DNA of 64,000 nucleotides, taken from assembly GCA_045646945.1 (NCBI GenBank), contig JAZRLS010000062.1, positions 26,618 to 90,617 of the forward strand, read 5' to 3'. Shown here piece after piece: positions 21,629-39,093 of the stretch (position 1 is the stretch's first letter; each line of letters starts with the position of its first letter). The position numbers and the translations under genes were made by a program. The stretch is from Eubacteriales bacterium (GTDB lineage Bacteria > Bacillota > Clostridia > Oscillospirales > CAG-272). The notes below the pieces were generated by a model. The model was not told the origin of the DNA. It worked only from the letters and a program-made list of their open reading frames with translations, and searched no databases.

Positions 21629-21667
21629 TAATCTAAACACTTACTTTATGATTGAGAGGTGAAAAAC

Positions 21668-23089: not shown

Positions 23090-23092
23090 AAG

Positions 23093-23119: not shown

Positions 23120-23127
23120 TAATTGTT

Positions 23128-24300: not shown

Positions 24301-24463
24301 ACGGTTTCCTCCTTTTTGTAAGTTGTTTTATTTTGAAAGGCAATAGATTCCTTTGAGATATATCACGAATAGAATATATCGGCTTGGTTTCAAAGAAATC
24401 TATTACCTGTTTTATTCAATATATCTTTGAAGAGCAAATAATAGAATAGCTCTTAAACCGAGG

Positions 24464-24688: not shown

Positions 24689-24815
24689 TTGTAGCCTCCG
24701 AAAGGGTTATTTTGAACTTTACAATAATGTCATTGCCTACATGGCTAATAATTGCTTATTAACGGTAAGGAATACACTTGATTATTGCAATGTAGCTTGG
24801 TTTACTTTAAATTAA

Positions 24816-26510
24816 TTAGATATTTAATAACTCTCTATATTTGTTAGAAATCCGTATACCCTTATAGGCTTCTTTGGGATTTCCTTTGGAAATCTTATTT
24901 CCTCGCTCATCAATGCGAACACGGGAGCGCTCAATACCTTTTAGGGTTAAAAACTTTGTTATATCTCCTTTCTTTTTATCCTCGATTTCATTCATAGCGC
25001 AAAAGCTGCTGAAAGCTACTCTTACATTTTTTGATGACTCATAACAATCCTCATTGCATTTCAAGCATTGTTCAAAGAATACTTCTTCGGGACAATATAA
25101 GACCTTTCCCTTCGTGTTGGCATCTGAGGATACTTTACATGTAGGGAATTTCCGTCCTTCAGAGATATATTCTGTTAATCCATCCATAGCCCATGTGAAG
25201 ATTCCATCCCTCTCGTTCCAAAGTTTATCGACGAGCTGGGGATCTTTGTCTTTTTCTGGAGTGGACGGGTTTAAAAACGGGATGTAAATCAATCTGCTAA
25301 AAATAGCATTTACATCTTCTTGCGACAGATCTGACGGAAGAAGCAGTTTGTGGTTCGTGCAAAAAATCATTTTTACGCCGCCTGAAATGGTTTTAGGATC
25401 ACTATGACGCGACGACGCAACCACTGTATCATTGCTTGATACCAAATTTTTGAAGTGCCCGGGATCTCCAAGCGGTGTATTTGAAACATCCGTTGCAATA
25501 TTTAACCACGCATTGTCCAATTGCACCACATAACTTGGTTTTGACATGTTTGAAAAATCATTATGCTTTACCAAACCGTCGGGGAAGAAAAGCTCTATAA
25601 TTAAACATAAGATAGTCTTTCCCGTATCGGTATCACCCAAGAAAACGAATGCTTTTTTGGCATCCTTGTAAAAGCTGAAAATGTAACCGAGCATTACTTG
25701 GATTAATTTTTTAAGTTTCTTATTTCCTTGGGTAATGTTGTCCACAAACGCATGGAACATTTCGCAAGATGCATCAGGATTGTAACATGCTTGAATACAA
25801 CAATTAAATCTATAATCGGGAGAGTGCTTTAATAATATATTATTTTTTGCATCAAATACCCCATTCAAGCAATTTACCAAAGCACCGTTTTTATAAAATG
25901 GTTCATCTGTATACAATCTTGCATCTGTAAATAGTAGCTTATATGCTTCGTGATAGTCTGAAGTTTTGATTCTTAATTTAGCATCGGAAGAAAGCCCCAT
26001 ATCACAAAGCACCGAAAATTGTTGTTCTGTAAGCTGTTCATATGAACCACTTAGATCGTTGTAATTGTATAGACAATCTTTTACAATGACAAGCGATTGG
26101 CTATTAATTTTCAATTCTGCCAGCAAATTCGGACGGCGTTCGGGTTCTTCTTTCACGGTCTTTTCAAACTTTTCTCTCGCGGCGCGAGCTTTCTTTCTTT
26201 TCTTTTTATCGATCTTCTTTTTCTCTTTATCCCTTGAATGCTTCGATACATATGTACTATATGCGGGCTTTGCTAACGGGGAATAAGAATTAATATCATT
26301 AAGCGCCCGAAGAATATCGGATCGCTCCTGCTCGGAAAACGATCTTCCAAGAATAAGGCGGTGATTATCAATTACAATAATACCGTCTATTACCTTTGCA
26401 CCTCTACAGTACAAATCTTTTATTTTGTCTTGCACTTTCGGTGCATAAGGATTGAGGATATTATTTATGTCATTATTATAAAACAAATCAGAATTAGATA
26501 TGGAAATCAT
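24816..26510 (-). CDS. P4/D5-family primase-helicase-like protein (SF3 helicase)
   Basis: Walker A FLGDTDTGKT and D5_N-like region upstream. ATG 26510 with RBS GGGGGAAA. No primase catalytic domain recognised by eye. Confidence 0.65.
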   Translation of the reverse strand: MISISNSDLFYNNDINNILNPYAPKVQDKIKDLYCRGAKVIDGIIVIDNHRLILGRSFSEQERSDILRALNDINSYSPLAKPAYSTYVSKHSRDKEKKKIDKKKRKKARAAREKFEKTVKEEPERRPNLLAELKINSQSLVIVKDCLYNYNDLSGSYEQLTEQQFSVLCDMGLSSDAKLRIKTSDYHEAYKLLFTDARLYTDEPFYKNGALVNCLNGVFDAKNNILLKHSPDYRFNCCIQACYNPDASCEMFHAFVDNITQGNKKLKKLIQVMLGYIFSFYKDAKKAFVFLGDTDTGKTILCLIIELFFPDGLVKHNDFSNMSKPSYVVQLDNAWLNIATDVSNTPLGDPGHFKNLVSSNDTVVASSRHSDPKTISGGVKMIFCTNHKLLLPSDLSQEDVNAIFSRLIYIPFLNPSTPEKDKDPQLVDKLWNERDGIFTWAMDGLTEYISEGRKFPTCKVSSDANTKGKVLYCPEEVFFEQCLKCNEDCYESSKNVRVAFSSFCAMNEIEDKKKGDITKFLTLKGIERSRVRIDERGNKISKGNPKEAYKGIRISNKYRELLNI

Positions 26511-26727
26511 ATTGTTTCCCCCAAACAAAAAATCTCGTACCCATTACCGCTAAGGATAATTCGTACGAGAGGAATTCCGTATTTATTATTATGAACCGCG
26601 GCAATGGCTTTTATAGATTAAAATAATTAATATAATAAATTATAAATTACTGATTGATTCTCTAATTTAATATTTGTGAATTAGAAAATAATCATTTTAA
26701 TCAACAAAACCACTGGAGCGTGGGATT

Positions 26728-26756
26728 GTTTATTGATAAATATTAAATCAATAAAC
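26728..26756. repeat. Perfect 10-bp inverted repeat in AT-rich non-coding region
   Basis: GTTTATTGAT-9 nt-ATCAATAAAC. Confidence 0.6.
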
Positions 26757-26958
26757 GCAGGTGCGTTTGTTAGCCGTTCGGCTACCTCTATCCTCCTTTA
26801 AATTGGATTTTATAAAGAAAATCATAAAATGAATTTTCCTTGTGCTTCTAACATGTATTAGTGAAATAATTGTTTGTCTCGAATTGAAATATAACAACTA
26901 TTTTCTTAGCACAGTTTTATTATACCATATTTTTCCCAAAAAATCAATCCCTTTTAGA

Positions 26959-27003
26959 TCTTTTTTTGAACTAAAATTGTAGTGTCTTTTTTTGAGCTAA
27001 AAT
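26959..27003. repeat. Two 19-bp direct repeats (iteron- or recombinase-site-like)
   Basis: TCTTTTTTTGAACTAAAAT and TCTTTTTTTGAGCTAAAAT, 26-bp period, 1 mismatch. Confidence 0.6.
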
Positions 27004-27171
27004 CGCACCAATTCCACTAATTAGATTATTTCATTAAAATAGATTAGTTATTAATCGTGTTTATATAATTCATTGTGTCAAAATAAAACCAAATTGGATA
27101 TTTAAGTTGTTAAATCATTATTTTTATGCACGACAGTTGAAAAGCAGACACAAATGACACATAAATAATAC

Positions 27172-27780
27172 CTAATTTTGAATTTGTAAATTAGTTAATT
27201 TATAAAATACCGTCTTTTTCATTCCCAAGCGTGTCATAGCTTCTTTGGCGGTGATTGTTCCGTTTTTCCATTCCGCATAGACTTCATCCCAATTGGCGGG
27301 CTTTTCGATACGTGGGCGACCGAGGTGTTTGCCCTGTGTCTTAGCAGCCTCGATGCCTTCTTGCTGTCGTTGACGGATGGTAAGGCGTTCCTGCTCGGCA
27401 ATCGTGCCGAGGACTTCTATCAGAATATTATTTACCATATCGAACACCCATTCTTGCCCCTTGGGGAGATCCATCATGGTTGTCGGCAGATCGATGACCT
27501 TTAGGTGGATATTGTGCTCCTTGAAATATTGCAGCTCGTTGTGGATATCTGTTTTATTACGGCTCAGACGGTCAAGGGATTTAATAATAAGCGTATCACC
27601 GCTACGGAGCATTGTGTTTTTCAATGCTTGATAGCCGCTACGTCCCAAGCTCTTGCCGCTCTCCTTATCCGTGATAATATCCCTCTCGTCTGCGCCGAGC
27701 TTACGGAAAGCTTCAAGCTGACGGTCAAGGTGCTGCTCTTTGCTTGAAACACGAGCATAATAGAAAACTTTATTTTGCAT
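27172..27780 (-). CDS. Small serine recombinase (resolvase/invertase family)
   Basis: YYARVSSKEQHLDRQ catalytic Ser, IKSLDRLSRN, C-terminal HTH. ATG 27780 with RBS GGAGG. Confidence 0.85.
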   Translation of the reverse strand: MQNKVFYYARVSSKEQHLDRQLEAFRKLGADERDIITDKESGKSLGRSGYQALKNTMLRSGDTLIIKSLDRLSRNKTDIHNELQYFKEHNIHLKVIDLPTTMMDLPKGQEWVFDMVNNILIEVLGTIAEQERLTIRQRQQEGIEAAKTQGKHLGRPRIEKPANWDEVYAEWKNGTITAKEAMTRLGMKKTVFYKLTNLQIQN

Positions 27781-27803
27781 ATAACCTCCAAAAAAAGAAA
27801 ACA

Positions 27804-27831
27804 CCCGTAACGGCTCTGTGACCGTTACGGG
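27804..27831 (-). terminator. Rho-independent terminator after the FrhB-like gene
   Basis: CCCGTAACGG/CCGTTACGGG 10-bp stem followed by TGTTTTCTTTTTTT on the minus strand. Confidence 0.7.
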
Positions 27832-27914
27832 CTGAATTGTCCCATCAACCACTAGCAGTGCTGGTGGCACCAAAAAACTTTAGCTATGCGTAGAAAAAAC
27901 ACCTCCTTGTTCGT

Positions 27915-28913
27915 TCATTTTTTGTTCTTCTTTTGTTTTTTAATGATTGTCTTTAAACTTTTTGGAATAACTTTTTTTATAATCTTTTTAACCCTGCCCT
28001 TTAAACCTATAAAGCGATTTACAGCGGAAATGAGGTTATGTTTTGACAACAAATCAGCAAATACGTCGCGTTTGTCATTTGGCTTTTTTGACATAATTAC
28101 CATCTTGTTTTTTTCTACTGCTTTTTCAAAAGTTGTATGAAATAGTTTTATTCTAGGGGTGGAGTTTATAAAGGCATCTCCCTTTTCTGTTTCCGCAAAA
28201 ATAGATGAAACACCATATTTATTCCAATATACATCACTACAGGTTGCTCCCCAAAAATCACCAATCATAATATCGCCTTGTCTGTTATTCCCTTTAAATT
28301 GGCAATTATAACACGATGGTTTTCCCAAAATGGAAAAAGCATATCCATATTCAGTTTCATAAAAAGGTTTTTGATATATTTTTCCGTTATCAAATTTTGC
28401 ATATAGATACGAAGGTTGCCATGCATCTAATTTGTGTCTTACCGAAAAGTCTATTACTTTGCTTTTGTACTTTTTTTCCAAATATGCTATGTAGTCAAAA
28501 TGAACTTTGGCATATGTTGGGCCATGACATATCAGTTCACAGGTTATAAGATTCTCTGGCTTTGCACCTATGAATGTGTATAATGCTGCGATAATGCAAG
28601 GCAAACCAAAAAACAATACTACTTTCCCTGTATCAACTAAATTTTTCACATCAGCGTAGATGCCTGTTTTATCACAATCGATATATTTAGATCCTTTCAG
28701 TTTGTATAAGTCCGATATATCGTCGATAATAATGTATTCTGCTTTGTAAAAATCCTTGCTGTACGCAACTCCGACAACATAGCCGTCTTGCGACAAAACA
28801 AATTCACTTAATGCGGTAGCTATACCACCAGAAGCACTTTGTAGCAATTTGGCATCATTATCCAAATACCCTCCGTATACAGCAACATCGTGTTTGTTGT
28901 ATTCTTCATACAT
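27915..28913 (-). CDS. Coenzyme F420 hydrogenase/dehydrogenase beta-subunit (FrhB/FdhB)-like protein
   Basis: SASGGIATAL N-domain motif, Cys cluster (CELICHGP, CYNCQFKG), Lys-rich tail. RBS AAGGAGG 8 nt before ATG 28913. Confidence 0.55.
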   Translation of the reverse strand: MYEEYNKHDVAVYGGYLDNDAKLLQSASGGIATALSEFVLSQDGYVVGVAYSKDFYKAEYIIIDDISDLYKLKGSKYIDCDKTGIYADVKNLVDTGKVVLFFGLPCIIAALYTFIGAKPENLITCELICHGPTYAKVHFDYIAYLEKKYKSKVIDFSVRHKLDAWQPSYLYAKFDNGKIYQKPFYETEYGYAFSILGKPSCYNCQFKGNNRQGDIMIGDFWGATCSDVYWNKYGVSSIFAETEKGDAFINSTPRIKLFHTTFEKAVEKNKMVIMSKKPNDKRDVFADLLSKHNLISAVNRFIGLKGRVKKIIKKVIPKSLKTIIKKQKKNKK

Positions 28914-28933
28914 TTTTGTAGCCTCCTTTTTTG

Positions 28934-29093
28934 CACTAAAAGTATAGTTATGGCTGATTTTTCCGCCATAGGAATTTTTACGGTTATCATTATATCACAT
29001 TCGCCGCCATTTGTCAATATTTCACGAATAGAATTGTGAAATATTGGCGCTTTTTCATATGAAAACAGTTTTGCTATAACTATACTTTTAGTG
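28934..29093. repeat. 21-bp inverted repeats flanking a 118-bp promoter-containing segment (candidate inverton)
   Basis: CACTAAAAGTATAGTTATGGC (28934-28954) versus the reverse complement of GCTATAACTATACTTTTAGTG (29073-29093): 20 of 21 match. Confidence 0.6.
28989..29017 (-). promoter_or_regulatory. Consensus sigma-A promoter facing the FrhB-like gene, overlapped by an 11-bp palindrome
   Basis: Minus strand TTGACA-17 nt-TATAAT. The -35 overlaps the inverted repeat CAATATTTCAC (29015-29025) / GTGAAATATTG (29036-29046). Confidence 0.6.
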
Positions 29094-29684
29094 AAAATCC
29101 AAGGTTTTTCCTTTCTTGTAGAACGCCCACAGTGGCATTCCGCAAGCCTCGGCTGCCTCTTTTGCGGGCAGTTTTTTATTTTTCCAGAGCAGATAATACT
29201 TCTCATAGTCGGGCGGTATGTGGAAGGGCGGTCTGCCGAAGCGCACACCTCGTTTCTTTGCCGCCGCAATCCCCGATGCCTGACGCTCTCTGATATTGAT
29301 GCGCTCGTTCTCGGCAACGAAGGATAAAAGCTGTAAAACCAAATCCGAAATAAACGTACCGAGCAGATCCTTGCTCTTGGTGGTATCAAGAAGCGGCATA
29401 TCAAGCACAATAATATCCGCTTTTTTCTTTTGCGTGATCTTCTTCCATTCCTCTTGAATCTCGTGGTAGTTGCGCCCGAGACGGTCAATGCTCTTGATAA
29501 TGAGAATGTCGCCCTCGTGTAAGCTGCGGTACATCCTGATATACTGCGGTCGGCAGAAGTCCTTTCCGCTTTGCTTGTCTATGTAGATGTTCGATAGCTC
29601 AATGCCGTAGGCAGTCAGCTCGTCAAGCTGTCGGTCTTCCTTTTGTGTAACGGACGATACTCTTGCATATCCTATTTTGATGAT
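29088..29684 (-). CDS. Small serine recombinase; catalytic N-terminus in frame but without ATG/GTG/TTG start
   Basis: In-frame upstream of the tracked ORF: IIKIGYARVSSVTQKEDRQ (catalytic Ser). Also IKSIDRLGRN and a C-terminal HTH. RBS AGGAGG lies 5-8 nt before the ATC codons at 29684/29681. Confidence 0.6.
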   Translation of the reverse strand: MIKIGYARVSSVTQKEDRQLDELTAYGIELSNIYIDKQSGKDFCRPQYIRMYRSLHEGDILIIKSIDRLGRNYHEIQEEWKKITQKKKADIIVLDMPLLDTTKSKDLLGTFISDLVLQLLSFVAENERINIRERQASGIAAAKKRGVRFGRPPFHIPPDYEKYYLLWKNKKLPAKEAAEACGMPLWAFYKKGKTLDFH

Positions 29685-29740
29685 GAATCCCTCCTTTCCG
29701 GCGGCGAAATGCGATATAAGATATTATATCATAAAGGGAT

Positions 29741-29836
29741 TTAACAAGTGTTTGCTTTGTGCGTCTTTTTGTAGCTGAGATAGATATCCACAAGCACCTC
29801 TATCACGGCTAAAATAATCAGCTTCAGATATTTCAT
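29741..29836 (-). CDS. 31-aa hydrophobic peptide ORF (below the ORF-track cutoff)
   Basis: MKYLKLIILAVIEVLVDIYLSYKKTHKANTC. RBS AAAGGAG 4 nt before the ATG. Lies 13 nt after the amidotransferase stop. Confidence 0.25.
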   Translation of the reverse strand: MKYLKLIILAVIEVLVDIYLSYKKTHKANTC

Positions 29837-29849
29837 AATACTCCTTTCG

Positions 29850-30794
29850 TTAGTAGCTGTAACAGCCGTAAATATAGTCCTCGATTTCATCGGGGGAGAA
29901 CCCCTCGGCTACGAGCGCATCGATCTCCGAGGACTCATACCCCTCCATCAGAGCGGCTTGTTTGAGCATAGACATGTAATCGTCCTTACTGCTCTGACTT
30001 TGCGTGGGGGTGGTAAAGCCCCATCCGTAATCGTACCAACGGCACAAGCCGTATGCCGCATATTCGTCATAGTCAAACTCGGAATAGGATAGCTCTCCCC
30101 GTGGCGTAATCTTCAAGATTTGTCCCTCTTCGAGAGGGATTTCCTCATAATGTCCGAGCTTCAAGGTGTCAAATAGCTTGGTGTTGATGACCGATTTCCA
30201 CAAGATTTCCTCGGTGCTTGCGTACACGAACAGCTTTTCCTTTGGGAAATGCAGAACGGCAATGGGATTATCACCCTTAATCAAATAAATATTACTCTGA
30301 TCGTCAAGCAGGGCAAACGAAAAGCTCCCCGACACGGTTTCAGCCATAAAGCGCAGGCTGTTCTCGTCGAGGAGCTTCTGTTGTTCAATCAGTTGCACGG
30401 CAATGTAGCTATCGGTTTCGATCTTGCTCTTGGGTAGGCGGTACTGCTTTTGCAGCTCGTCCATGTTGTATAGAACACCGTTATGAGTAAGGGCAAATTT
30501 TGTGCCTCCGGCTTTGCCGTAAAAGGGATGATTGTTGTAATTCTTCTTAGCAAGACCGTGGGTGGCGTGTCGGGTGTGTCCGATGATTGCCGATACTTCC
30601 TTGGGCGGCTTGAACGTGACCGCATATGCCGCCTTGGGAGTTTTGTCGATCACAATGCGGTTCTTATAGTGATAGGCAATTCCGCAAGCATCTGTGCCTC
30701 GTACCGAAGATTCGCTTGCAAGCTCGTTGAGAAGTGCCGCCAAGTCTATCTTTGATTCTTCCGCATAGGATGAAAATCCGAAGATTCCGCACAT
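29850..30794 (-). CDS. Stand-alone class-II (Ntn-type) glutamine amidotransferase
   Basis: N-terminal nucleophile MCGIFGF. HTRHATHG, NNHPF and HNGVLYN blocks. No fused synthase domain. Confidence 0.8.
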   Translation of the reverse strand: MCGIFGFSSYAEESKIDLAALLNELASESSVRGTDACGIAYHYKNRIVIDKTPKAAYAVTFKPPKEVSAIIGHTRHATHGLAKKNYNNHPFYGKAGGTKFALTHNGVLYNMDELQKQYRLPKSKIETDSYIAVQLIEQQKLLDENSLRFMAETVSGSFSFALLDDQSNIYLIKGDNPIAVLHFPKEKLFVYASTEEILWKSVINTKLFDTLKLGHYEEIPLEEGQILKITPRGELSYSEFDYDEYAAYGLCRWYDYGWGFTTPTQSQSSKDDYMSMLKQAALMEGYESSEIDALVAEGFSPDEIEDYIYGCYSY

Positions 30795-30795
30795 C

Positions 30796-31887
30796 TTATA
30801 TTTCCTCGCTTTCCTCTGTGATTTCGTTGATGTATAGCCGCTTGGATTTGAGATACTTGATAAGCTCGTCCTTGCCCTTGATATCGCCTACAAATTCGCT
30901 CCAAGACAGCCCTTCGATCTCAGTGTCACTTCTGTCCTTACAAACGTGGCAAAGCTCGTCCACAAGCTGTAAGGTGGCAAGGAAGGTGTTGTAATTGAGC
31001 GTTCCACGGAACAGACGAAACTCCACCGTAGCGTAATTGCAGAGGTTGACCGCAACGTATCTTCCGTAGCTTTTGTCCTTGGCATTCTTGTAGGTGTTGG
31101 CGGTGTTCTCAGAAATCCCGTAACGGCTTGCCCAACGATTGATGTTATCCACCGTTCTGCGGGAGAATTTCAAAAGCTCGTTCCAATGGTTCTCCACAAA
31201 GAAGACGATACGGGCAATGACTGACTCCTGTGCTTCTTCACTCTCACCGAATGCCGAGCGGTTGACGTGGCAGTGCAGACCGCAAGTATCGGTGTCATGG
31301 GAGCGGTATTCCATCTTGATCGCCTTTCGAAATACCTCTTGCCAATTCATACGCTCGGTATGATAATCAAGCGTCATAGGATGCGACACAAGCTCAAAGC
31401 CGTCTTCAAGGCTTCCGTCATGTTTGCAGTACAGATGCTCGTCATCACGGTTGGCTATGTACATAAGCGTATCAGCATTGTCACTGCATTCACCGCCATC
31501 GTCGATTTCAAGCTCCACGCCGATAAACAAATCGCCCTCTCCGTAGAAGATCGGAGAGGGCTTGTAATTGTAGCTTTCAATACTGCTGTCATTCAGACGG
31601 TCATAGCAAGAGGAACAGTAGTCACGGTCGGAATCCTCGTCGTAGCAGGCATCATCCTCGCAAATCAACCGACCGCAGTCCGAGCAGTGAATGAAGTTGT
31701 ATTCGTAACAGTGGTTGCAGAGGGTGTAATTGTCCTCGTGGATGGCATCACTGCGCCATATGCGCTCTCCGCAGTGTTGGCAGAGAACGGTCTTTTCTTC
31801 AAGGCAATCCTCGCACATGGTGGTTTCGTTCATGTAGTGGGTGTTTTCATCGTCGAGCGGTTTCCCGCAAAATTCGCATTTCGTCAT
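30796..31887 (-). CDS. Multi-zinc-ribbon N-terminus fused to an Amidoligase_2-type (glutamine-synthetase-like) domain
   Basis: Five CxxC pairs in the first ~95 aa. Then GVELEIDDGG, KHDGSLEDGFELVSHP, CGLHCHVNR and VEFRLFRGTLN. Its stop abuts the GATase start. Confidence 0.6.
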   Translation of the reverse strand: MTKCEFCGKPLDDENTHYMNETTMCEDCLEEKTVLCQHCGERIWRSDAIHEDNYTLCNHCYEYNFIHCSDCGRLICEDDACYDEDSDRDYCSSCYDRLNDSSIESYNYKPSPIFYGEGDLFIGVELEIDDGGECSDNADTLMYIANRDDEHLYCKHDGSLEDGFELVSHPMTLDYHTERMNWQEVFRKAIKMEYRSHDTDTCGLHCHVNRSAFGESEEAQESVIARIVFFVENHWNELLKFSRRTVDNINRWASRYGISENTANTYKNAKDKSYGRYVAVNLCNYATVEFRLFRGTLNYNTFLATLQLVDELCHVCKDRSDTEIEGLSWSEFVGDIKGKDELIKYLKSKRLYINEITEESEEI

Positions 31888-31904
31888 GGTGTTTCTCCTT
31901 TGTG

Positions 31905-32075
31905 TTAATTTTCAGATGTGCTTTCGGCACAGGCTTTGATAGTCTTCTTAACAAAAAACACCGCCCGATATAGAGCGGTGATCAGAAGCGTGGCAACAGC
32001 GGCAATGACGGCAAGCACCGCATGGACCGCTTTCTTGACGGCAGGGTGATTCTTGATTTTCTTGACGCTTTTCAT
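31905..32075 (-). CDS. 56-aa small membrane protein ORF (below the ORF-track cutoff)
   Basis: MKSVKKIKNHPAVKKAVHAVLAVIAAVATLLITALYRAVFFVKK..., one TM, same strand as its neighbours. Confidence 0.3.
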   Translation of the reverse strand: MKSVKKIKNHPAVKKAVHAVLAVIAAVATLLITALYRAVFFVKKTIKACAESTSEN

Positions 32076-32117
32076 GGTAGTTTCTCCTTTGTTTTGTATT
32101 TGATTTTTGTGTTGTTT

Positions 32118-32402
32118 TTAATACTCCTCGCAGAAGAGCATGGTTGCATGGGTTTCGTCATTGATAACGTAGATCTTCGCCGTGATCGACACATCCGACA
32201 GTAATAGATATTCCTTGCGGTAGTCCGGGCATTCCTGCGTGTGTACGATCCTCAGTTTGCCGCCCTCTGTGGATAGCTGAAATACCTGTAAGTAGTCGGG
32301 TGAAAAAGGCAGTGCGTCAATGCACTGCCATAAAAATAATTGAACGGCGAGCGGTATCTCTCGACTTACCGCCGCCGTTGCGTAACGTTGTGGTGGGAAC
32401 AT
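32118..32402 (-). CDS. Small conserved-looking hypothetical protein
   Basis: 94 aa with RBS AGGAGG before the ATG. First gene of the GC-richer minus-strand module. Family not recognised with confidence. Confidence 0.4.
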   Translation of the reverse strand: MFPPQRYATAAVSREIPLAVQLFLWQCIDALPFSPDYLQVFQLSTEGGKLRIVHTQECPDYRKEYLLLSDVSITAKIYVINDETHATMLFCEEY

Positions 32403-32490
32403 GTGTACCTCCTATGATTGTGATTTCATAGGTATGGTGTATAATTTAGAAATCTTGATATTTGATTTTTTAGATCATGGTACACTTGGC

Positions 32491-32519
32491 TTGAATTGCT
32501 ATCACATTTATGTTATAAT
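32491..32519 (+). promoter_or_regulatory. Sigma-A promoter for the NACHT gene
   Basis: TTGAAT-17 nt-TATAAT with a TGT extended -10. Confidence 0.55.
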
Positions 32520-32554
32520 AAAGTACAACAAGTATCAATAGAGGAGTTAAAACG

Positions 32555-34834
32555 ATGATTAAAGATTATTTTTTTAATTGGTGTCTTGATTTTATAAAAG
32601 ACAGACTAAAAGACAAAGTTAAATTAGGGAAAGTAAAATCTAATTTAAGCAAATATATTGACGACTGTTTAAAAGATAATGAATTATGTACAGTGGAAGA
32701 AGAATTTGATTTTCAGGGATTGTGTGATTACTTAAAAGATAGCTGTTTAGATGAAGTTAAGAAGTATATATGTTCTAATGGCGAAAGACGAAAAAGAATA
32801 AGAGAAGATATTGTTGCAAAAGCAATTGAGTATTCAAATGCGAAAATGAAAGTATCTGTCCAAAGAGTTGAAAAAATAACAAATAACGCTATTGATATTA
32901 TCTATGATTTTTATAGAAGTGAAAGTAATAATGATTTACTGTTGTTAATTGGAGAAACTCAGGAATTGATTTGTGAAACGTATGAAGCATTAAGAGATCA
33001 AAACGAAAAACTTGCAGAAGACGTTAAAGCGATCGTTAAGGATGAATCTAAAATAAGAAAAATAGAAGAATTTGATACGATTTCCACCTATATCAACACC
33101 TTCATTAAACAACAGAAAGAAAATGTTAAGAATCAAACCATATTTCCGTGGTTTAATGATTCTCCCAAGTATCGAGAAGTCTTTCCAAAATTGTTTGTTT
33201 TTCCAACATTCAAGGAAGGAAACAATAATGTCACATTAGAGAATTTAACATCTAAATCGGGAGAGAACATCGCAATTCTTGGTGATGCTGGAGCAGGAAA
33301 ATCAACTTTGTTAAGATATATATTTGCCTTTACCGAAATACCTCAATGCTCTTGTCTATATATAACAGCTAAGGATACAAAAAAGGAAAATGGTATATTA
33401 GATGTAATCTCTCTATATTCTCAAAAAAATAACAATTGTCGATATTTGATATTTATTGATGGTGTAGACGAAGCTTACCACAACGATTATTCTGGATTTG
33501 AGTTTTTAATAACAAAAATAAAAACAATTACAAATTGCAAATTTTGGCTTGGTTGTAGAACTGATTACTATAAAAAGTATTATGGAGAAAATATATGCTT
33601 TGTTAACCACAATTACGAAATTAATCCTTGGTCACCAGAGCAAACAGAAAAATTTATTCACGAATACGCGATTATTAGGAAAAATCCAGAAATAAATAAA
33701 TTTGTTGATAAATTAACCGACGGAAACGAATCGGTGGAAAAATTAAAGTCAAATCCATTTCAACTTTCTTTAATTGTTTTTTTAGCCGATATAAAAGAAG
33801 ATAAGCCAGTAATATGTATGTATGATCTGTACGAAAGGTTTATGCAAAAATGGTTTGATAGAGAGCAGAAAAGAGGGACTTGCTCTGATGAAAATAAAAT
33901 TATACTAAATAAATTACGTGAAGCTGCTAAAGCAATATATAATAATAGTACAATTCTAATTGATGATACTATTAAGAAGAATACTGCGGCTAGCGACCTA
34001 TTAGTTATTAATGAAATTGACATATACAATGAAAGATATGCATCTGCCTTCTATCATCGCAGCTTAGCCTCATTTTTGTTGGCACAGCAAACCATTGAAA
34101 TGTTATTTGGCAATGATGTTGAGCAAGTCATAAATGTTTTGTCTTATAAATTGAAAGATGATGTAACGAATTTTGTGGGAGATAAATTTTCCACCTTATC
34201 TCAAGCAGAAAAAGCTAGAATAAAAAACAATTTACATCACTTCTATAAATCGATTCCGGATGATGAAGAAAATTTAAGCGTTAGAGAACAGATTATATAT
34301 TACATAACAAGGCTTGATATTGATGTTTCAGATTTTCTTGTTGAAGTTATTAATAGTAATCCTCAACACCCTATTATGAGATTAACATTGGCATATGGAT
34401 GTGCACTTTCTGAAAATATGATAGCAAGGGATTTTGCTTTGTCATATGCAAAATCAATATCCAATGAAACAATTGATGCAATAACGAATAGAGCTTGGAC
34501 TGTTGTATATTTTGATGATATCAATAGGGATCCCTATACATATAGAGACAATGAAAAATGCCAATGGAAAAATGCAAGAATGGCGAGGATAAAAAGGTTT
34601 ACAAAAGAAGAACCAAGAGTCAAAGATTACAGATTTAGACTGTTTGACATTCCTTTGTTTTATAGTTTTTTAAACGATCGTGGGTGGAAAGACATATCTG
34701 ATGAGGAATATCGCATATTGGCAAACATCGACTTCCCATTAAATATTTTCAATTATGAAGAAATATGTTTTTTAAATGAACAAAAGGCAAAATTGTTATT
34801 TGAATATGAGAAGCATTTAAATAATAATCAATAA
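32555..34834 (+). CDS. NACHT-type STAND P-loop NTPase
   Basis: Walker A ILGDAGAGKST, Walker B YLIFIDGVDEA, NPFQLSLIV, FYHRSLASFLLA (NACHT winged-helix-type motif). ~240-aa helical N-domain and ~250-aa C-domain unassigned. Confidence 0.75.
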   Translation: MIKDYFFNWCLDFIKDRLKDKVKLGKVKSNLSKYIDDCLKDNELCTVEEEFDFQGLCDYLKDSCLDEVKKYICSNGERRKRIREDIVAKAIEYSNAKMKVSVQRVEKITNNAIDIIYDFYRSESNNDLLLLIGETQELICETYEALRDQNEKLAEDVKAIVKDESKIRKIEEFDTISTYINTFIKQQKENVKNQTIFPWFNDSPKYREVFPKLFVFPTFKEGNNNVTLENLTSKSGENIAILGDAGAGKSTLLRYIFAFTEIPQCSCLYITAKDTKKENGILDVISLYSQKNNNCRYLIFIDGVDEAYHNDYSGFEFLITKIKTITNCKFWLGCRTDYYKKYYGENICFVNHNYEINPWSPEQTEKFIHEYAIIRKNPEINKFVDKLTDGNESVEKLKSNPFQLSLIVFLADIKEDKPVICMYDLYERFMQKWFDREQKRGTCSDENKIILNKLREAAKAIYNNSTILIDDTIKKNTAASDLLVINEIDIYNERYASAFYHRSLASFLLAQQTIEMLFGNDVEQVINVLSYKLKDDVTNFVGDKFSTLSQAEKARIKNNLHHFYKSIPDDEENLSVREQIIYYITRLDIDVSDFLVEVINSNPQHPIMRLTLAYGCALSENMIARDFALSYAKSISNETIDAITNRAWTVVYFDDINRDPYTYRDNEKCQWKNARMARIKRFTKEEPRVKDYRFRLFDIPLFYSFLNDRGWKDISDEEYRILANIDFPLNIFNYEEICFLNEQKAKLLFEYEKHLNNNQ

Positions 34835-34883
34835 TAACTGGGTTTCATATAACACATTTCCGTCATCTTCGTAAACATCAAAG

Positions 34884-34920
34884 CCCTTGAAGCACTATGC
34901 TCTCAAGGGTTTTCGCTTTT
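34884..34920 (+). terminator. Rho-independent terminator after the NACHT gene
   Basis: CCCTTGA/TCAAGGG stem followed by TTTTCGCTTTT. Confidence 0.55.
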
Positions 34921-34975
34921 ATCACATCCAAGACATATAAACTCATTTAACATATCCTAAATTCGATATCTCTTG

Positions 34976-35004
34976 TTGAAAAATATCGGATAAAGTGATA
35001 TAAT
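34976..35004 (+). promoter_or_regulatory. Sigma-A promoter for the HNH-HEPN operon
   Basis: TTGAAA-17 nt-TATAAT with a TGA extended -10. Confidence 0.55.
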
Positions 35005-35030
35005 TATTGTATGGAAGGAGGCTGATTTGT

Positions 35031-36155
35031 TTGAACAAGTGTATTTATACCGGTAAAGAAACGCCCGAAGCATCTTTCGATTCCGCAGAACACATTTTCC
35101 CTAAGTGTATAGGAGGGCAAAATTGTTTGCCGCGAGGGTATGTTTCGGATGAAACTAATAATATTTTTTCAAGATATGAGCTGCAATTTGCACGTGAAAA
35201 TCCTGTCGTTTTGATTAACAGGATGTTTTATCCTAAAGTCGGACGGAAGAAACACAAGAACCGTGAAAAAGTTGCAGTATTTAAGCATGATGATAATGTC
35301 ATATTAGGCTATATCAACGAAGCAAAACCGATATGTCTTAACCAAATTTCTTTCTTTGAATTGAGTGACGAAACATTAGACGCCGCTTTGACGTGTAAAA
35401 TTACGCTTTCCTCTACCACTGAGGGAAACAACAAAGAGAGATATGAGGCGTTCCTTGAAGTATTGAAACAATACAATGGGTGTCCTTCACCCATAAAAAG
35501 CGATATCATCCCCGACAACACCATTCTTTTAGGATATAAGGATAAATGTTGGTATTTAGGGATATCTAAAAATCAAAATCCAGAACTGATTAAAACAATG
35601 GTTTTCAAAGCTGTACAAAAGCTTATTGCAAATTTAGAAAAGTTTAATGAGCAGTACAAGGAGAGCGAATTAACATCCAACCAAGTAACAGCGAGCTTTG
35701 AGATAATGTTTAATTTTGAAGATGTTTTTAGGGTTTATGCTAAAATTGCCTTCAATGCACTTGCAAGCCTAAAAGGTCAAGAATATGTTTTAAAATCCGA
35801 ATTCGATGATATTCGAAAAGCTATATTAGAGGGCGAAGATATCTTGTCCTATGTGACTATTGCTGATGGCAAAAATGTGCAAAAAGAAATCACAGATAAG
35901 CTCAGCCATAGAGTTAGTATCGGGGATAGGTGTCATTCGGTTGTCTTTTGTACCTTTGATAAATGCTTGTACGGTTTTGTTTCACTGTATGGAGCGGATC
36001 ATCCGATTGCCGTAAAATTGGGAATGATATCTACTAATGTAGTTGATATGTATTTGTGTGATTGGCAGAACAAGAAGGATTATAAGCTTATTGACTATGT
36101 GACAAGTGTATGCGCCTTTAATCATGAGGATGTAATAGATACATCTGATATGTGA
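35031..36155 (+). CDS. HNH-type nuclease-like N-terminus with large unassigned C-terminal domain
   Basis: CIYTG...SAEHIFPKCIGG...VSDETNN resembles HNH_5-type motifs (EHIxPxxxGG ... N) with degenerate Zn cysteines. TTG 35031 is preferred (RBS GGAAGGAGG 9 nt upstream); the track start 35007 overlaps the RBS. Confidence 0.55.
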   Translation: MNKCIYTGKETPEASFDSAEHIFPKCIGGQNCLPRGYVSDETNNIFSRYELQFARENPVVLINRMFYPKVGRKKHKNREKVAVFKHDDNVILGYINEAKPICLNQISFFELSDETLDAALTCKITLSSTTEGNNKERYEAFLEVLKQYNGCPSPIKSDIIPDNTILLGYKDKCWYLGISKNQNPELIKTMVFKAVQKLIANLEKFNEQYKESELTSNQVTASFEIMFNFEDVFRVYAKIAFNALASLKGQEYVLKSEFDDIRKAILEGEDILSYVTIADGKNVQKEITDKLSHRVSIGDRCHSVVFCTFDKCLYGFVSLYGADHPIAVKLGMISTNVVDMYLCDWQNKKDYKLIDYVTSVCAFNHEDVIDTSDM

Positions 36156-36207
36156 TTTTTTATGCTGTTAATATTTTTTGCACTATATAAGTAACAAGGA
36201 GGTCAGT

Positions 36208-37299
36208 ATGAGCCAAGCAATAAAAGATAGATTTAGTGACGAGCTGAAAACTGTAAACGACTACACAACTTATATTGAGAATAACTTTTATAGCCGTTCC
36301 AGAAGTGTTGTTCGAACAGTAGGCTATGAAGATTTCAATTCTTTAAATGACTATGTGCTTTATGCCAATACCCAAGCTGAAAAAGATAGAAACAGGCAAA
36401 TTATTGATAGTTTGAAAATTATCGTTGATTCTAAGATTTCTGACAAAAGAAATAAGCTTATGCAAATGGAAGAGATTGAATTGCCGAGCATAAGTGAGAA
36501 TATATTGCAAAATGATTTAGCTGAAAGTTTAATTGGATATATTGAATCAACGGTTTATGATTGCATGGAAAACGAGAATAACAAACCATATCATGAGCTT
36601 ATAACAGAAATTACCCCTGTTGTTTTAAAAGCAGAAGTTGATGAGCAAGATCAAATGTGTGAAGAACAGTATTACGATATGTTAACAGAGGATGATTATG
36701 CTAGCATTCTAAACTATGTCAGATGCAAACTATATAATGAAGCTATCACAGACTTGGAAAACGAATTGGAAGATCTTGAAGAACTGAAAACACTATACAA
36801 TATTTTTGATGAAAAGAATCCAATAAATATTTACAGGCAAGCATTTATACTTTCTATGACGGCGTTTGATGCTACTATATTTGATTTGTTTGCCGAGATA
36901 TTTAATCAAGATTTCTTTGGTGTAGCAAGGATTGTGAATTATGAAAAGAAATTTACTTTAAAAGATATTACGCAGTGCCAAAGCTTTGATGATTTTGCAT
37001 CACAAACGGTTGATTCTATGATTTCAGGGAAATACGCATCTGATATTGTTGAAATATTACACCAATATAAGCCTCAGCTTTTTTTAGTGAATGGACAAGA
37101 TTCATATGAGAGCATTTTAGAAATGATACAAAGAAGGAATGTACATGTCCATAAAAAAGGTATCGTAGATGAAAAATACTTCTCAAAAGGCAACGGAAGG
37201 CAATTAGGCTTGAATAATGGTGATTACGCCTCTATTGACTATTTATATTATCTCAATTCGTACGAAACGCTGAACAATTTTATTGCGAATTTTCAATGA
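36208..37299 (+). CDS. Protein with C-terminal HEPN-like domain
   Basis: ATG 36208 with RBS AAGGAGG. Acidic coiled-coil-like N-half. C-terminal RNxxxH motif (IQRRNVHVHKKG). Confidence 0.5.
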   Translation: MSQAIKDRFSDELKTVNDYTTYIENNFYSRSRSVVRTVGYEDFNSLNDYVLYANTQAEKDRNRQIIDSLKIIVDSKISDKRNKLMQMEEIELPSISENILQNDLAESLIGYIESTVYDCMENENNKPYHELITEITPVVLKAEVDEQDQMCEEQYYDMLTEDDYASILNYVRCKLYNEAITDLENELEDLEELKTLYNIFDEKNPINIYRQAFILSMTAFDATIFDLFAEIFNQDFFGVARIVNYEKKFTLKDITQCQSFDDFASQTVDSMISGKYASDIVEILHQYKPQLFLVNGQDSYESILEMIQRRNVHVHKKGIVDEKYFSKGNGRQLGLNNGDYASIDYLYYLNSYETLNNFIANFQ

Positions 37300-37304
37300 A
37301 ATGC

Positions 37305-37333
37305 GCCCGGGATTCAAATCAAGAATTCCGGGC
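37305..37333. terminator. Hairpin terminator between convergent genes
   Basis: GCCCGGGATTC/GAATTCCGGGC 11-bp stem (one G-T pair) followed by ATTTTTA. Confidence 0.55.
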
Positions 37334-37342
37334 ATTTTTATA

Positions 37343-37528
37343 TCATCTATTAGTAATATTCTTATCAATATACTCATCCAGTGCTTTGCGCGAGATTTTC
37401 CATTTGTGTCCGACACGGAAGCCTTTCAACTCTCCTGTGTTCAGCAGAGTATAAATAGCATTTCTGCCAATATTCAAATATCGCATAACATCTTCGGGTG
37501 ATAAGATTTCATTTTCAGTATTCATCAT
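37343..37528 (-). CDS. Excisionase-family HTH DNA-binding protein
   Basis: LSPEDVMRYLNIGRNAIYTLLNTGELKGFRVGHKWKISRKALDEYI is the classic excisionase-family DNA-binding pattern. Confidence 0.65.
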   Translation of the reverse strand: MMNTENEILSPEDVMRYLNIGRNAIYTLLNTGELKGFRVGHKWKISRKALDEYIDKNITNR

Positions 37529-37548
37529 ATATAAGTCTCCATTCTGTT

Positions 37549-38616
37549 TTATTTAGAAAATTCTTTGTAAAGTTCAATCAGTGATGGGATATAACCGCAA
37601 TCAAATTTCTTCAAATCTTCTTTGGTTACCGTGATTGGATTTACATCAATATCATTTAGCAATAGCAGCATTTCATTGATTTTCTTTTTGCTATGGTATT
37701 TGTTGAAATTCTCAATAGCTTTGGAAACACTTCTAACAGTGTTTGCGTGTTCAACAAAATCCCAAAGCAACTTCTTAGTTTTCTTACCATATTCGCTTTT
37801 TGCAATTCGTTCCTCTGAATCTTTCAAGGTTCGTATAGTGGCATTAGATGCGATTTGTGGCAGATAGTAATTGAAAAGCTCACTACCAATTTTATTTGCT
37901 CGATTAAAGAACGCAGATAGGGAATCCAATTTATACTTCTTTTTGAGTTCCTTGATTTTTTCTTTTTTACAACGGATCTCAATACGGACAATGTTTTTTG
38001 CTTCCTCCAAATTCTCATTAGAGTATGTATTTTCTTTTTCCTTCATCATTTGAGCATATTTGTTGTAGATAGATATTTCCACATTGTCAAAGCTTTTCTT
38101 AGAATGCACGGTCATATCGTCCTTTGTTGGCTTAACCCTTTTTGAAAATATATCATACATTTCAAATCGCTTCATGTTTCTTGGAGCTTTGCCTCTGCGC
38201 ATAGTATTGATATATGCCTTTACTTGTGATTGGTTGTCCAATACGGCATTGACACAGAAATCCAATCGACTTAATTTGCATTTGTTTACCTTGGGAAGAG
38301 CTTCGCTTTTCGCTTTCAACAAGGCGTTAACCTTATCAAACAAATCCGAATAATTTCGGGTATTAAAAAGCCGAACATAGTTATCATTGTTCATAACTCG
38401 TTCGGCAGAAATAATATATTGTACTTGATAGGTATGATAATTCTTTTTGTTTATGAGGAACGTTCTAATTAAAATTCCTTTATTGGATAATCCGAAGTAT
38501 AGCATACCATTATCTTCGGCTTTCCAACAGCTCTTATCCTTCCTCAGATCTTCTTGTATAACTTTGCTTTTCTTCTTAGGTAGTTCGTACGTTACTTCAA
38601 AGGTATGTATATACAT
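37549..38616 (-). CDS. Replication-initiator-like protein (Rep_trans / phage CRI-like)
   Basis: LSRLDFCVNA, ISIYNKYAQ and VRIEIRCKKEK blocks resemble rolling-circle Rep_trans motifs. Assignment by eye only. Confidence 0.4.
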   Translation of the reverse strand: MYIHTFEVTYELPKKKSKVIQEDLRKDKSCWKAEDNGMLYFGLSNKGILIRTFLINKKNYHTYQVQYIISAERVMNNDNYVRLFNTRNYSDLFDKVNALLKAKSEALPKVNKCKLSRLDFCVNAVLDNQSQVKAYINTMRRGKAPRNMKRFEMYDIFSKRVKPTKDDMTVHSKKSFDNVEISIYNKYAQMMKEKENTYSNENLEEAKNIVRIEIRCKKEKIKELKKKYKLDSLSAFFNRANKIGSELFNYYLPQIASNATIRTLKDSEERIAKSEYGKKTKKLLWDFVEHANTVRSVSKAIENFNKYHSKKKINEMLLLLNDIDVNPITVTKEDLKKFDCGYIPSLIELYKEFSK

Positions 38617-38902
38617 AATATCATTCTCCTATATTATTTACTATATTTACTATACGCATTTTCAGATTCATCACTCTGTATTATTTTGAATCCATAAGGT
38701 TTATCTTTATATCTTATTTTTCTTTTGGTTCTCCACAGAGTATTTCTTTCCCCTGCTTATATAGCTTATATAAGGTGGTATCATCCGAAAGGGGATTAAA
38801 ATGCATAGGTTAATATTATGTTATACAAATTTTAAATTTAATTTGGGTACAAAAGGGTATTATTGTTGTCTGTTTTGCTTTTTCAAACCATTATAAGTCT
38901 GC

Positions 38903-38923
38903 AAGGGTCAACGTAAGGGTCAA
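38903..38923. repeat. Paired AAGGGTCAA repeats, candidate integrase arm-type sites (right end)
   Basis: AAGGGTCAA at 38903 and 38915, 12-bp period, same orientation as the left-end pair. Confidence 0.4.
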
Positions 38924-38969
38924 ATCCATATCCGCGTACAACAAAAAGTGAGAAAAAAAGAGAAAAAGC

Positions 38970-38991
38970 CCTGAAATCTTGCGATTTCAGG
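38970..38991 (-). terminator. Island-supplied terminator for tRNA-Ser
   Basis: CCTGAAATC/GATTTCAGG stem followed by a long T-run on the minus strand, just after the tRNA 3' end. Confidence 0.6.
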
Positions 38992-39000
38992 ACTTTTCTT

Positions 39001-39023
39001 TGGCGGAGAAGGAGAGATTTGAA
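39001..39023. repeat. att direct repeat within the tRNA-Ser 3' end
   Basis: Identical 23-mer to 21405-21427. Confidence 0.85.
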
Positions 39024-39093
39024 CTCTCGCGCCGGTATTCCCGGCCTACACCCTTAGCAGGGGCGCCTCTTCGGCCAACTTGAGTACTTCTCC
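39001..39093 (-). tRNA. tRNA-Ser (anticodon GCU) with long variable arm and encoded CCA
   Basis: Reverse complement GGAGAAGTACTCAAGTTGGCCGAAGAGGCGCCCCTGCTAAGGGTG...GGTTCAAATCTCTCCTTCTCCGCCA. Anticodon loop is CTGCTAA. Confidence 0.9.

Follow-up and report, generated by a model that had tools for sequence, protein, structure and literature searches.

A 64,000-nt stretch of a contig from a Eubacteriales bacterium of the GTDB lineage CAG-272 (JAZRLS010000062.1, positions 26,618-90,617 of the forward strand; assembly GCA_045646945.1), hereafter called the window, carries two adjacent genes for nuclease-like proteins on its + strand: gene 1, the open reading frame (ORF) at 35031-36155, and gene 2, the ORF at 36208-37299. 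A sequence-only reading of this DNA had proposed that the two form a dedicated defence system in which an HNH-type nuclease is paired with a HEPN-like protein. Comparison with related loci leads us to favour, with moderate confidence, a different view, in which two unrelated single-gene cassettes that move independently of each other have been stacked head-to-tail in a cargo hotspot of an element inserted at tRNA-Ser, each probably acting alone against phages or other mobile genetic elements (MGEs). Both genes are genuine and a small mobile element probably carries them as anti-phage cargo, and their adjacency is best read as defence-island stacking rather than as an obligate partnership.

The evidence that carries this view comes from the distribution of the two families. 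A census of one genome per GTDB species, with up to 8 kb of flanking sequence on each side of every locus, gave 72 gene 1 loci from Bacillota, Bacteroidota, Fusobacteriota, spirochaetes (Treponema), Melainabacteria and other groups, and a gene 2 relative was found near none of them. Likewise, a gene 1 relative was found near none of seven gene 2 loci identified with a close profile and none of 36 identified with a broad profile, the loci scanned including representatives from Planctomycetota, Chloroflexota, Acidobacteriota and actinomycetes. When metagenomic and plasmid loci were included, and all loci with at least 1.3 kb of sequence downstream of a gene 1 relative (n=79) or at least 1.3 kb upstream of a gene 2 relative (n=42) were counted as informative, both genes occurred together in five of the 79 and five of the 42. 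All five are near-identical contigs that carry one cassette (L080-L084), which is 86.5% identical in nucleotide sequence to that of the window. Beyond this one cassette the genes are not conserved as neighbours, and the proposal of a dedicated two-gene system fails on this observation.

Close relatives of each gene also stand alone. For example, a gene 1 that is 99% identical to that of the window (P0001) lies in the same backbone, with GATase and amidoligase genes and later an HTH_17 gene and a gene for a 355-aa Rep protein, and has no gene 2; upstream of it are AbiTii and a 275-aa gene, and downstream lies a Peptidase_C14 gene in convergent orientation. Gene 1 occurs without gene 2 at 89% (L001) and 78% (P0017) identity, and gene 2 occurs without gene 1 at 70% (L073) and 72% (P0088). 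In blastn alignments of related elements, nucleotide similarity stops or starts at gene borders, as the following matches to the window illustrate (coordinates, content).

29077-32057, 34849-36153 and 37367-38829, match to L086, in which gene 2 is skipped
34864-36148, match to L001, the gene 1 cassette only
36207-37298, match to L073, gene 2 only
34880-37361, match to L080 and L081, both genes

These breakpoints delimit a gene 1 cassette, which consists of promoter and coding sequence, and a gene 2 cassette, which consists of ribosome-binding site (RBS), coding sequence and terminator. Judged from such alignments, the two cassettes occur apart, except in one shallow lineage in which they are joined. 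This two-cassette form is also present in a second, different element, where it lies behind TIR_2 and Nuc_deoxyrib_tr genes.

In the window itself the two genes have the layout of a compact operon. The features below were obtained from ORF and homologue comparisons, scans for promoters and hairpins, sequence alignments and AlphaFold2 (AF2) models.

34976-35004, +, sigma-70-type promoter, TTGAAA-17-TATAAT with an upstream TG (extended -10), 11/12 match in the promoter scan
35015-35021, +, RBS of gene 1, AAGGAGG, 9 nt ahead of the TTG, read from the sequence
35031-36155, +, gene 1, 374 aa, TTG start at 35031 (ORF, homologues, AF2)
35031-35228, +, HNH-like module of gene 1, residues 1-66 (invariant residues of alignment A1, HNH_5 matches)
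35658-36152, +, family-specific C-terminal domain of gene 1, approximately residues 210-374 (A1 invariants K238, N242, H302, C343 and D344)
36156-36207, +, intergenic spacer of 52 nt, which is also the recombination border of the two cassettes (hairpin scan and blastn breakpoints)
36196-36202, +, RBS of gene 2, AAGGAGG, 5 nt ahead of the ATG, read from the sequence
36208-37299, +, gene 2, 363 aa, ATG start at 36208 (ORF, homologues, AF2)
36805-37296, +, HEPN-like C-terminal domain of gene 2, residues 200-363 (alignments A4 and A6, secondary structure)
37120-37152, +, predicted active-site motif of gene 2, E305-x3-R309-R310-N311-x-H313-x-H315 (100-member alignment)
37305-37333, +, intrinsic terminator, an 11-bp stem with seven GC pairs followed by a T-run (hairpin scan)

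The arrangement described in the sequence-only reading was borne out at each of these points: two co-oriented genes lie 52 nt apart with no terminator-like hairpin detected in the spacer by the hairpin scan, a near-consensus promoter and strong RBSs precede them, a terminator follows, and the ORF starts and lengths are as it had given them. The promoter is the top sigma-70-like match within 32.0-38.8 kb. Promoter-like sites in that interval are no more frequent than expected by chance (38 observed, 34.7 expected), so the support for this promoter comes from its own quality and position. It belongs to the segment that accompanies gene 1 into other elements, where this segment begins at 34849, 34864 or 34880. 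The start at TTG 35031 is favoured over an upstream TTG at 35007 because homologues begin with MNKCIY. The terminator falls within the block common to L080 and L081, which extends up to 37361, and is missing from L086. Measured against its family, each ORF is of full length, and no family-invariant residue is missing from either. The two genes are probably co-transcribed here, and most likely the gene 1 promoter drives both, with transcription ending at the terminator past gene 2.

Gene 1 encodes an HNH (His-Me finger) protein that, on the evidence of its sequence, has lost its zinc site and kept the catalytic E-H…N set. The motifs CIYTG, SAEHIFPKCIGG and VSDETNN were all located in the protein, and their key residues are invariant in the family. 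Among the 37 sequences of alignment A1, which reach down to 26% identity and were drawn from a family for which 84 homologues were found, E20, H21, D40, N43, S47 and E50 are invariant. The predicted catalytic residues are E20-H21 (nt 35088-35093) and N43 (nt 35157-35159), together with D40, S47 and E50. Of the four zinc cysteines one is left (C4), the other positions being T/S/x, S39 and T/V42; there is no CxxC...CxxC zinc knuckle, as CIYT and VSDETNN stand in place of CxxC and VCDDCNN. Such a knuckle is typical of the HNH_5/Cas9/McrA group, but membership of the superfamily does not depend on it. The protein matches the first half of the Pfam model HNH_5 at 19.4 bits (threshold 27.5; E 1e-3), and 25 of the 37 family members match the same model below threshold, while no other Pfam family is matched by more than two. 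A weak match to the HNH region of the NCBIfam Cas9d model was also observed. The family consensus gave no better HNH match in Pfam, and a PDB profile search with A1 gave no relevant match.

The assignment is carried by remote full-length relatives (L068-L071) that were recovered in a search with the family profile. These possess the canonical CxxC…EH…CxxCNN arrangement and score 50, 27.8, 46.1 and 41.2 bits against HNH_5, all above threshold. A second stretch of these proteins matches the gene 1 C-terminal domain (second-domain i-Evalues of 1.6e-13, 1.4e-6 and 4.5e-5), and the three taxa identified among them are Clostridia, Chitinophaga and Acidobacteriaceae. Because they both pass HNH_5 and have the gene 1 C-terminal domain, the HNH homology of gene 1 follows by transitivity, which upholds the earlier proposal of an HNH signature with degenerate zinc ligands. 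In the alignment, VCDDCNNYFSKLE of L069 lies opposite VSDETNNIFSRYE of the window protein, indicating that the window clade has swapped three of the four zinc ligands and retained the catalytic set.

Previous work on His-Me finger nucleases described a pattern in which an acidic residue and a His end the first strand, an Asn lies in the first turn of the helix and a polar residue follows at +4; the HNH_5-type sequence group takes in the HNH domain of Cas9 and McrA (PMC5714182). The AF2 model of gene 1 (pLDDT 90.9, pTM 0.86) agrees with this pattern. The E20-H21 pair is invariant and DSSP assigns a strand at residue 21, N43 lies 22 residues past H21 at the start of helix 40-56, and S47, at +4, is invariant. 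Foldseek with the full 374-aa model found nothing at E <= 0.001 in PDB or BFVD. The Foldseek queries were the full-length models of both proteins, and the HNH motif of gene 1 spans about 45 residues. Matches of gene 1 to PCNA/beta-clamp-like folds (E about 0.2, TM about 0.1) were treated as noise.

The remaining ~300 residues of gene 1 comprise a middle alpha/beta domain and the conserved C-terminal domain, and for both, comparisons with Pfam, with PDB sequences and with PDB and BFVD structures came back empty. A short form of 214-232 aa from Gastranaerophilales/Melainabacteria (L053-L062) is without the middle domain (profile positions 79-208), and a 227-aa member retains the C-terminal domain. 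These loci show conserved chromosomal synteny, with a gene of 377-389 aa downstream in six of them.

For gene 2, a first search returned 43 close relatives, none of them annotated. A HMMER profile search over 1.84 billion cluster representatives expanded the family to 474 clusters at 50% identity, 211 of them with E <= 1e-10 and most about 370 aa long, from phyla that include Bacillota, Planctomycetota, Chloroflexota and Acidobacteriota. A third search, which used the A4 profile, brought in hardly any further members, none of them with a Pfam annotation. The conserved part of the family is the C-terminal 160-180 residues, and the fraction of the majority residue is 0.27 in the N-half and 0.52 in the C-half. 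The AF2 model is all-helical (pLDDT 84.8). As had been proposed, the N-half (residues 1-200) is acidic, with 43 D+E and 19 K+R, and is predicted to form long helices.

The conserved domain suggests what the protein may be. The published HEPN motif is Rx4-6H with a polar N, D or H directly after the Arg, located at the end of a core helix (Anantharaman et al., PMC3710099). In gene 2, RRNVHVH occupies residues 309-315 (nt 37132-37152) and contains R310-N-x-x-x-H315 with the Asn immediately after the Arg. In the AF2 model the motif ends helix 300-315 and is followed by a loop, within a helical domain (208-360) that has inserts between its long helices. Four residues (E305, R309, R310 and G318) do not vary among 100 members of the family, which share about 20% identity with the window protein, and R210, Q211, F220, D221, D226, N311, H313, H315, D321 and Y324 are at least 90% conserved; R210, Q211, F220, D221 and D226 lie in the first long helix of the domain. 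HEPN_RiboL-PSP (PF18735) is the sole Pfam family matched by more than one member, with six matches among the 100 distant members and a best E of 3.5e-4; the 26 close members and four further distant ones gave no HEPN match in Pfam. Motif and position together make it fairly likely, in our judgement, that gene 2 is a HEPN protein. PDB matches returned by the A4 profile were set aside as coiled-coil artefacts of the N-half.

A domain distantly resembling gene 2 was also seen in the N-terminal half of a 415-aa hypothetical protein on a Crinalium plasmid (NC_019754.1; L138 3740-4987), which matches the family consensus in tblastn at E 1e-4 and adjoins a type I restriction R subunit gene. This instance hints, from sequence similarity, that the domain occurs in other architectures.

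Neither family has a partner that travels with it. All genes within three positions of either family were clustered by blastp and phmmer, and no general conserved partner was found, almost only singletons remaining beyond the synteny of close relatives. Across 91 loci, gene 1 has no conserved ATPase neighbour. The gene downstream of gene 1 is on the opposite strand in 32 of 84 cases, and the gene upstream of gene 2 is on the opposite strand at eight of 46 loci (about one in five, with repeated contigs of one cassette counted once); at many other gene 2 loci the gap to the upstream gene exceeds 90 nt. These opposite-strand counts indicate that both families behave as single-gene units. A toxin-antitoxin (TA) pair was also considered and rejected because genes 1 and 2 do not co-occur.

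A few neighbours do recur. A DUF2971-like gene, the only recurrent neighbour of gene 1 among distant genomes, lies downstream of its relatives in four loci from two phyla. Fic proteins are encoded 15-69 nt upstream of gene 2 relatives in three loci (L131 5082-7107, L100 and L093). The gene 2 relatives of 70-72% identity (L073 7264-9089; L134 4252-6089; L135-L137), which belong to one clade, follow at a gap of 14 nt a gene for a 244-247-aa protein with an HEMCH sequence, a HExxH zinc-peptidase-like motif, and no Pfam match. The genes that stand upstream of gene 2 elsewhere have no similarity to gene 1, and the DUF2971, Fic and HExxH recurrences are too few to define a system. The DUF2971-like genes lie one or two genes downstream in Bacillota and Bacteroidota (L126 5105-6013, L003, L039 and L120 8347-9318), and in L126 an HD-domain gene comes after. 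In L134-L137 the HEMCH gene and gene 2 stand directly after a tyrosine integrase gene.

The surroundings of both families are of a defence type, in agreement with the setting claimed in the sequence-only reading, and the neighbourhood in the window is a defence-type cargo hotspot on an integrative element. Immune-type cargo of this hotspot includes a STAND NTPase, AbiTii and the caspase-like Peptidase_C14, and TIR_2 and Nuc_deoxyrib_tr genes adjoin the joined cassette in the second element. Elsewhere, a gene 1 relative of 335 aa begins 12 nt past a Gabija-like pair with a WYL/WCX regulator nearby (L129 2446-7008), the pair being a GajA-like OLD-TOPRIM ATPase of 597 aa (AAA_15/AAA_21) and a GajB-like UvrD helicase of 591 aa; in that genome the gene 1 relative could be the third gene of a Gabija-like operon. 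Another gene 1 relative lies between two large AAA_21/AAA_13 ATPases, and a gene 2 relative adjoins WYL/WCX, REase-ARP and SNF2 genes. As raw, qualitative counts at E <= 1e-5, 142 proteins encoded within two genes of gene 1 relatives match 224 PADLOC models, among them MADS, PDC-S01/S07/S31, AbiLi, AriA, PtuA and HEC-01A, and 133 proteins encoded within three genes of gene 2 relatives match 295, among them MADS, type II methyltransferases, PD-Lambda-5_B and PDC-S04.

Both families reside on integrative and conjugative elements (ICEs), plasmids and islands, and neither was found in phage collections. Gene 1 is present on four plasmids and distant gene 2-like domains on five, all annotated as hypothetical, with Tn3 and recombinase genes in the plasmid contexts. 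The most widespread relative of gene 1 (P0049, from human gut metagenomes) occurs in 104 blocks of the collection. Each of the five contigs shown (L121-L125) has it at the edge of a conjugative element, flanked by ParB_N and DUF6017 genes. L121, the longest contig, also carries Flg_new, DUF3846 and DUF3801 genes, and the element occupies at least two different chromosomal sites.

Several observations weigh against the reading of two solo defence genes. The two genes have moved as one block between elements and share one promoter and one terminator, from which some functional synergy in this lineage is conceivable and may exist. Owing to the loss of its zinc site, gene 1 could be a weakened or inactive nuclease. 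For gene 2, no HEPN model of Pfam reached threshold in any of 126 members (26 close and 100 distant), family consensus sequences had no match in Pfam, the best PDB match of the full-length model in Foldseek had an E of 0.6, and PDB profile searches with A2, A4 and the C-domain-only A6 produced no HEPN match. Of the HEPN proposal, the motif is invariant and lies at a helix end, but profile and fold searches gave no confirmation. The evidence from defence neighbours is qualitative, with persuasive individual contexts. Finally, some contexts are plainly those of MGEs: the most widespread gene 1 relative adjoins ParB_N at an ICE edge, and one gene 2 relative lies amid DUF932, RadC and RecT genes.

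The joint mobility of the genes also speaks for an obligate two-gene system, in which an HNH DNase and a HEPN RNase act jointly or one controls the other. The common promoter and terminator and the 52-nt gap free of hairpins fit such a system, as does the block 34880-37361 standing intact at 86.5% nucleotide identity in a different element after TIR_2 and Nuc_deoxyrib_tr. However, co-occurrence is confined to that one cassette (5/79 and 5/42 loci), gene 2 is missing beside a 99% identical gene 1 in the same backbone, relatives of 78% and 89% for gene 1 and of 70-72% for gene 2 stand alone, and the breakpoints fall between the genes. The comparative data strongly disfavour this explanation, and we consider it improbable. 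A related proposal treats gene 2 as a portable HEPN-like module able to join any upstream enzyme gene, whether HNH, HExxH or Fic, and the window pair as one instance of this. Tightly spaced upstream genes on the same strand are indeed seen, namely the 246-aa HEMCH gene (14 nt; L073, L134-L137), Fic (15-69 nt) and gene 1 (window, L080-L084), and the control of HepT by MNT would offer an analogy. Yet the upstream gene is on the opposite strand at eight of 46 gene 2 loci and separated by more than 90 nt at many others, the fraction with a tight upstream gene is that expected from ordinary operon packing, and gene 1 is clearly independent of gene 2. This proposal, too, has little probability.

A different explanation is that neither gene is immune in function and that both serve the element, through addiction or post-segregational killing, exclusion of competitors, anti-defence or establishment. 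The families are found mostly on ICEs, integrative elements and plasmids near integrases, recombinases, Tn3, ParB_N, relaxase, RadC, DUF932 and RecT genes; P0049, with its 104 blocks, adjoins ParB_N at the end of a conjugative element, and TA modules occur nearby. Since some of these contexts are plainly MGE-like, a role in MGE maintenance or competition retains an appreciable chance, although we regard it as unlikely. The hotspot alternates Abi and other defence domains (AbiTii, TIR, caspase-like, STAND), members reside in chromosomal defence islands with Gabija-like, WYL/WCX, REase and SNF2 genes, and there is no conserved antitoxin-like partner. Moreover, defence genes are typical cargo of MGEs, so location on an MGE does not discriminate between the two explanations. 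Two independently mobile, probably anti-phage cassettes thus remain our preferred reading. There is a small chance that a bolder combination applies, in which the cassettes now form a cooperative DNase and RNase unit here, gene 2-type proteins are a modular class with interchangeable upstream enzymes, and each family is a new single-protein immune family with non-catalytic domains that have no known fold.

Family scans were made against Pfam, PADLOC-DB 2.0 and NCBIfam 20.0 (June 2026). The best match of gene 1 in PADLOC-DB 2.0, which includes Septu, Gabija, Zorya, Abi, PD-T4/T7/Lambda, PDC and HEC models, was BrxA at E 0.028; gene 2 had none there, and 100 members of its family gave nothing below E 0.01. 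A scan of both proteins against NCBIfam 20.0 returned nothing relevant. No Pfam, NCBIfam or PADLOC model covers either family, neither has a relative of solved structure, 'hypothetical protein' is the only name that their members bear, and no description of either was found in literature on HNH and HEPN defence, including that on PF14279 and PF18735. The statement that the pair resembles no named system thus holds for PADLOC 2.0, NCBIfam 20 and Pfam. The two proteins are of single-protein HNH and HEPN-type effector kinds already well known on defence islands, and the families themselves are undescribed.

Gene 1 resembles HNH_5-type His-Me nucleases in its beta-beta-alpha core with E20-H21, N43 and S47, and differs from them in that its clade is without three of the four zinc cysteines and that the N-terminal HNH module is fused to ~300 residues with no family or fold match. 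Type IV McrA-like enzymes, which are single-polypeptide HNH restriction enzymes with an extra domain and no methyltransferase, offer a working analogy: gene 1 may be comparable as a solitary HNH protein with an extra domain, on mobile DNA and with no adjoining methyltransferase, but no similarity in sequence or fold to known modified-DNA reader domains was detected in it. With Septu PtuB, Zorya ZorE and Gabija it shares the setting of a nuclease effector in defence islands, including the relative that follows the GajA/GajB-like pair in L129, but no PADLOC model of these systems matches gene 1 and no ATPase neighbour is conserved at the 91 loci.

Among HEPN RNases of single-gene or two-gene defence systems, PD-T4-2, PD-T4-5, PD-T7-3 and ApeA carry HEPN_RiboL-PSP (PF18735) (PMC10952713). 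Gene 2 is like these proteins and AbiD/AbiF in having a C-terminal helical domain with RNxxxH at a helix end, in being a solitary gene and in its defence and MGE contexts. It is unlike them in that no PADLOC model of those systems matches its family and in matching PF18735 below threshold in 6% of members. Its family also has an extra invariant Arg and an extra His in the motif (RRNxHxH), and a long N-domain that is acidic and helical. A further analogy might be drawn with HepT-MntA. MNT nucleotidyltransferases control HepT HEPN toxins, and gene 2 could share the idea of an RNxxxH HEPN toxin, some of its relatives following a gene for Fic, an AMP-transferase. Unlike HepT, however, gene 2 has no MNT gene or conserved partner, is about three times the size and shows no sequence match.

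These comparisons suggest how each protein might work. Gene 1 would be a Mg-dependent His-Me nuclease with H21 as general base and with E20, N43 and S47/E50 holding the metal. A solitary nuclease that has neither methyltransferase nor antitoxin must be self-limiting, which implies that its private domains probably restrain or target it; they may limit cutting to foreign or modified DNA, in the manner of type IV enzymes, or keep the nuclease off until infection. Gene 2 would be a metal-independent RNase whose RRNxHxH site is completed across a dimer, as in other HEPN enzymes, and its fast-evolving acidic N-domain may be a sensor or autoinhibitor, activation of the protein leading to abortive infection. 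Co-transcription in the window would layer DNA-targeting and RNA-targeting effectors, a layering that the comparative data suggest is opportunistic.

If either gene protects against phage, it would represent a new single-gene family in nuclease-based immunity. Gene 1 would then imply that an HNH nuclease can shed its zinc knuckle and be governed by ~300 residues with no PDB or BFVD neighbour, and gene 2, with at least 474 clusters in several phyla, would extend the HEPN superfamily. Uncharacterised nuclease-like genes are numerous in defence islands and nothing mechanistically surprising has emerged here yet, but both genes are good candidates for testing. The locus is also a clean case of cassette shuffling, in which STAND, HNH and HEPN-like genes in one copy of a backbone correspond to AbiTii, HNH and caspase-like genes in another. 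Hotspots of this kind are good places to look for more candidates, and tidy operon structure alone does not make a two-gene system.

The element that hosts the cassettes is defined by the following features.

21405-39023, no strand, integrative element of ~17.6 kb, low in GC, with a perfect 23-bp direct repeat at both ends
23128-24300, tyrosine integrase, ~1.7 kb from the distal repeat
32445-37366, no strand, cargo hotspot of variable content, flanked by the DUF960 gene and the HTH_17/Rep genes, from comparison with L086
32555-34834, +, STAND-type P-loop NTPase, 759 aa, with weak profile matches
39001-39093, -, tRNA-Ser(GCT), containing one repeat copy

The repeat copies lie at 21405-21427 and 39001-39023, the second inside tRNA-Ser(GCT), and from their sequence they look like attL and attR. 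GC content is 31-40% in the ~20-39 kb stretch and about 49% in the flanks. The integrase-bounded island of the earlier description is confirmed by its low GC, tyrosine integrase and direct repeats as a 17.6-kb integrative element inserted at tRNA-Ser. Besides the integrase it encodes a D5_N/DUF5906 primase-helicase, a resolvase, a GATase and Amidoligase_2 pair, DUF960, the 759-aa STAND-like NTPase, genes 1 and 2, and HTH_17 excisionase-like and Rep-like proteins, with the excisionase and Rep genes at the tRNA end.

The hotspot holds three cassettes in the window (STAND NTPase, gene 1 and gene 2), while in the same backbone in L086 its cargo is AbiTii with the 275-aa gene, gene 1 and Peptidase_C14. 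Because AbiTii and the 275-aa gene stand in for the STAND NTPase in L086, the latter appears to be a third independent cargo cassette. It was rejected as a third component of a system, having two promoters of its own (32418 and 32491), being followed by a hairpin and T-run (~34884-34915), and being replaced in L086 and absent in L080. The neighbouring gene had been called a NACHT NTPase; a STAND-type P-loop NTPase is supported, but the Pfam NACHT match itself is weak (E 0.002, P-loop only), with nSTAND_NTPase5 at a sub-threshold E of 2.5e-6 and NCBIfam antiphage_EruA at 29 bits against a cutoff of 1000 bits. Profile scans assigned its N-terminal 220 and C-terminal 350 residues to no family.

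Two further loci of the element lie on the - strand. At 29850-31887, a gene for a class-II glutamine amidotransferase-like protein (314 aa) is paired with one for a cysteine-rich Amidoligase_2 protein (363 aa); the pair belongs to the conserved backbone and has 92% nucleotide identity to L086. At 27915-28913 is a gene for an FrhB/FdhB-like protein, with the N- and C-terminal domains of coenzyme F420 hydrogenase beta subunit, which is unusual cargo for such an element.

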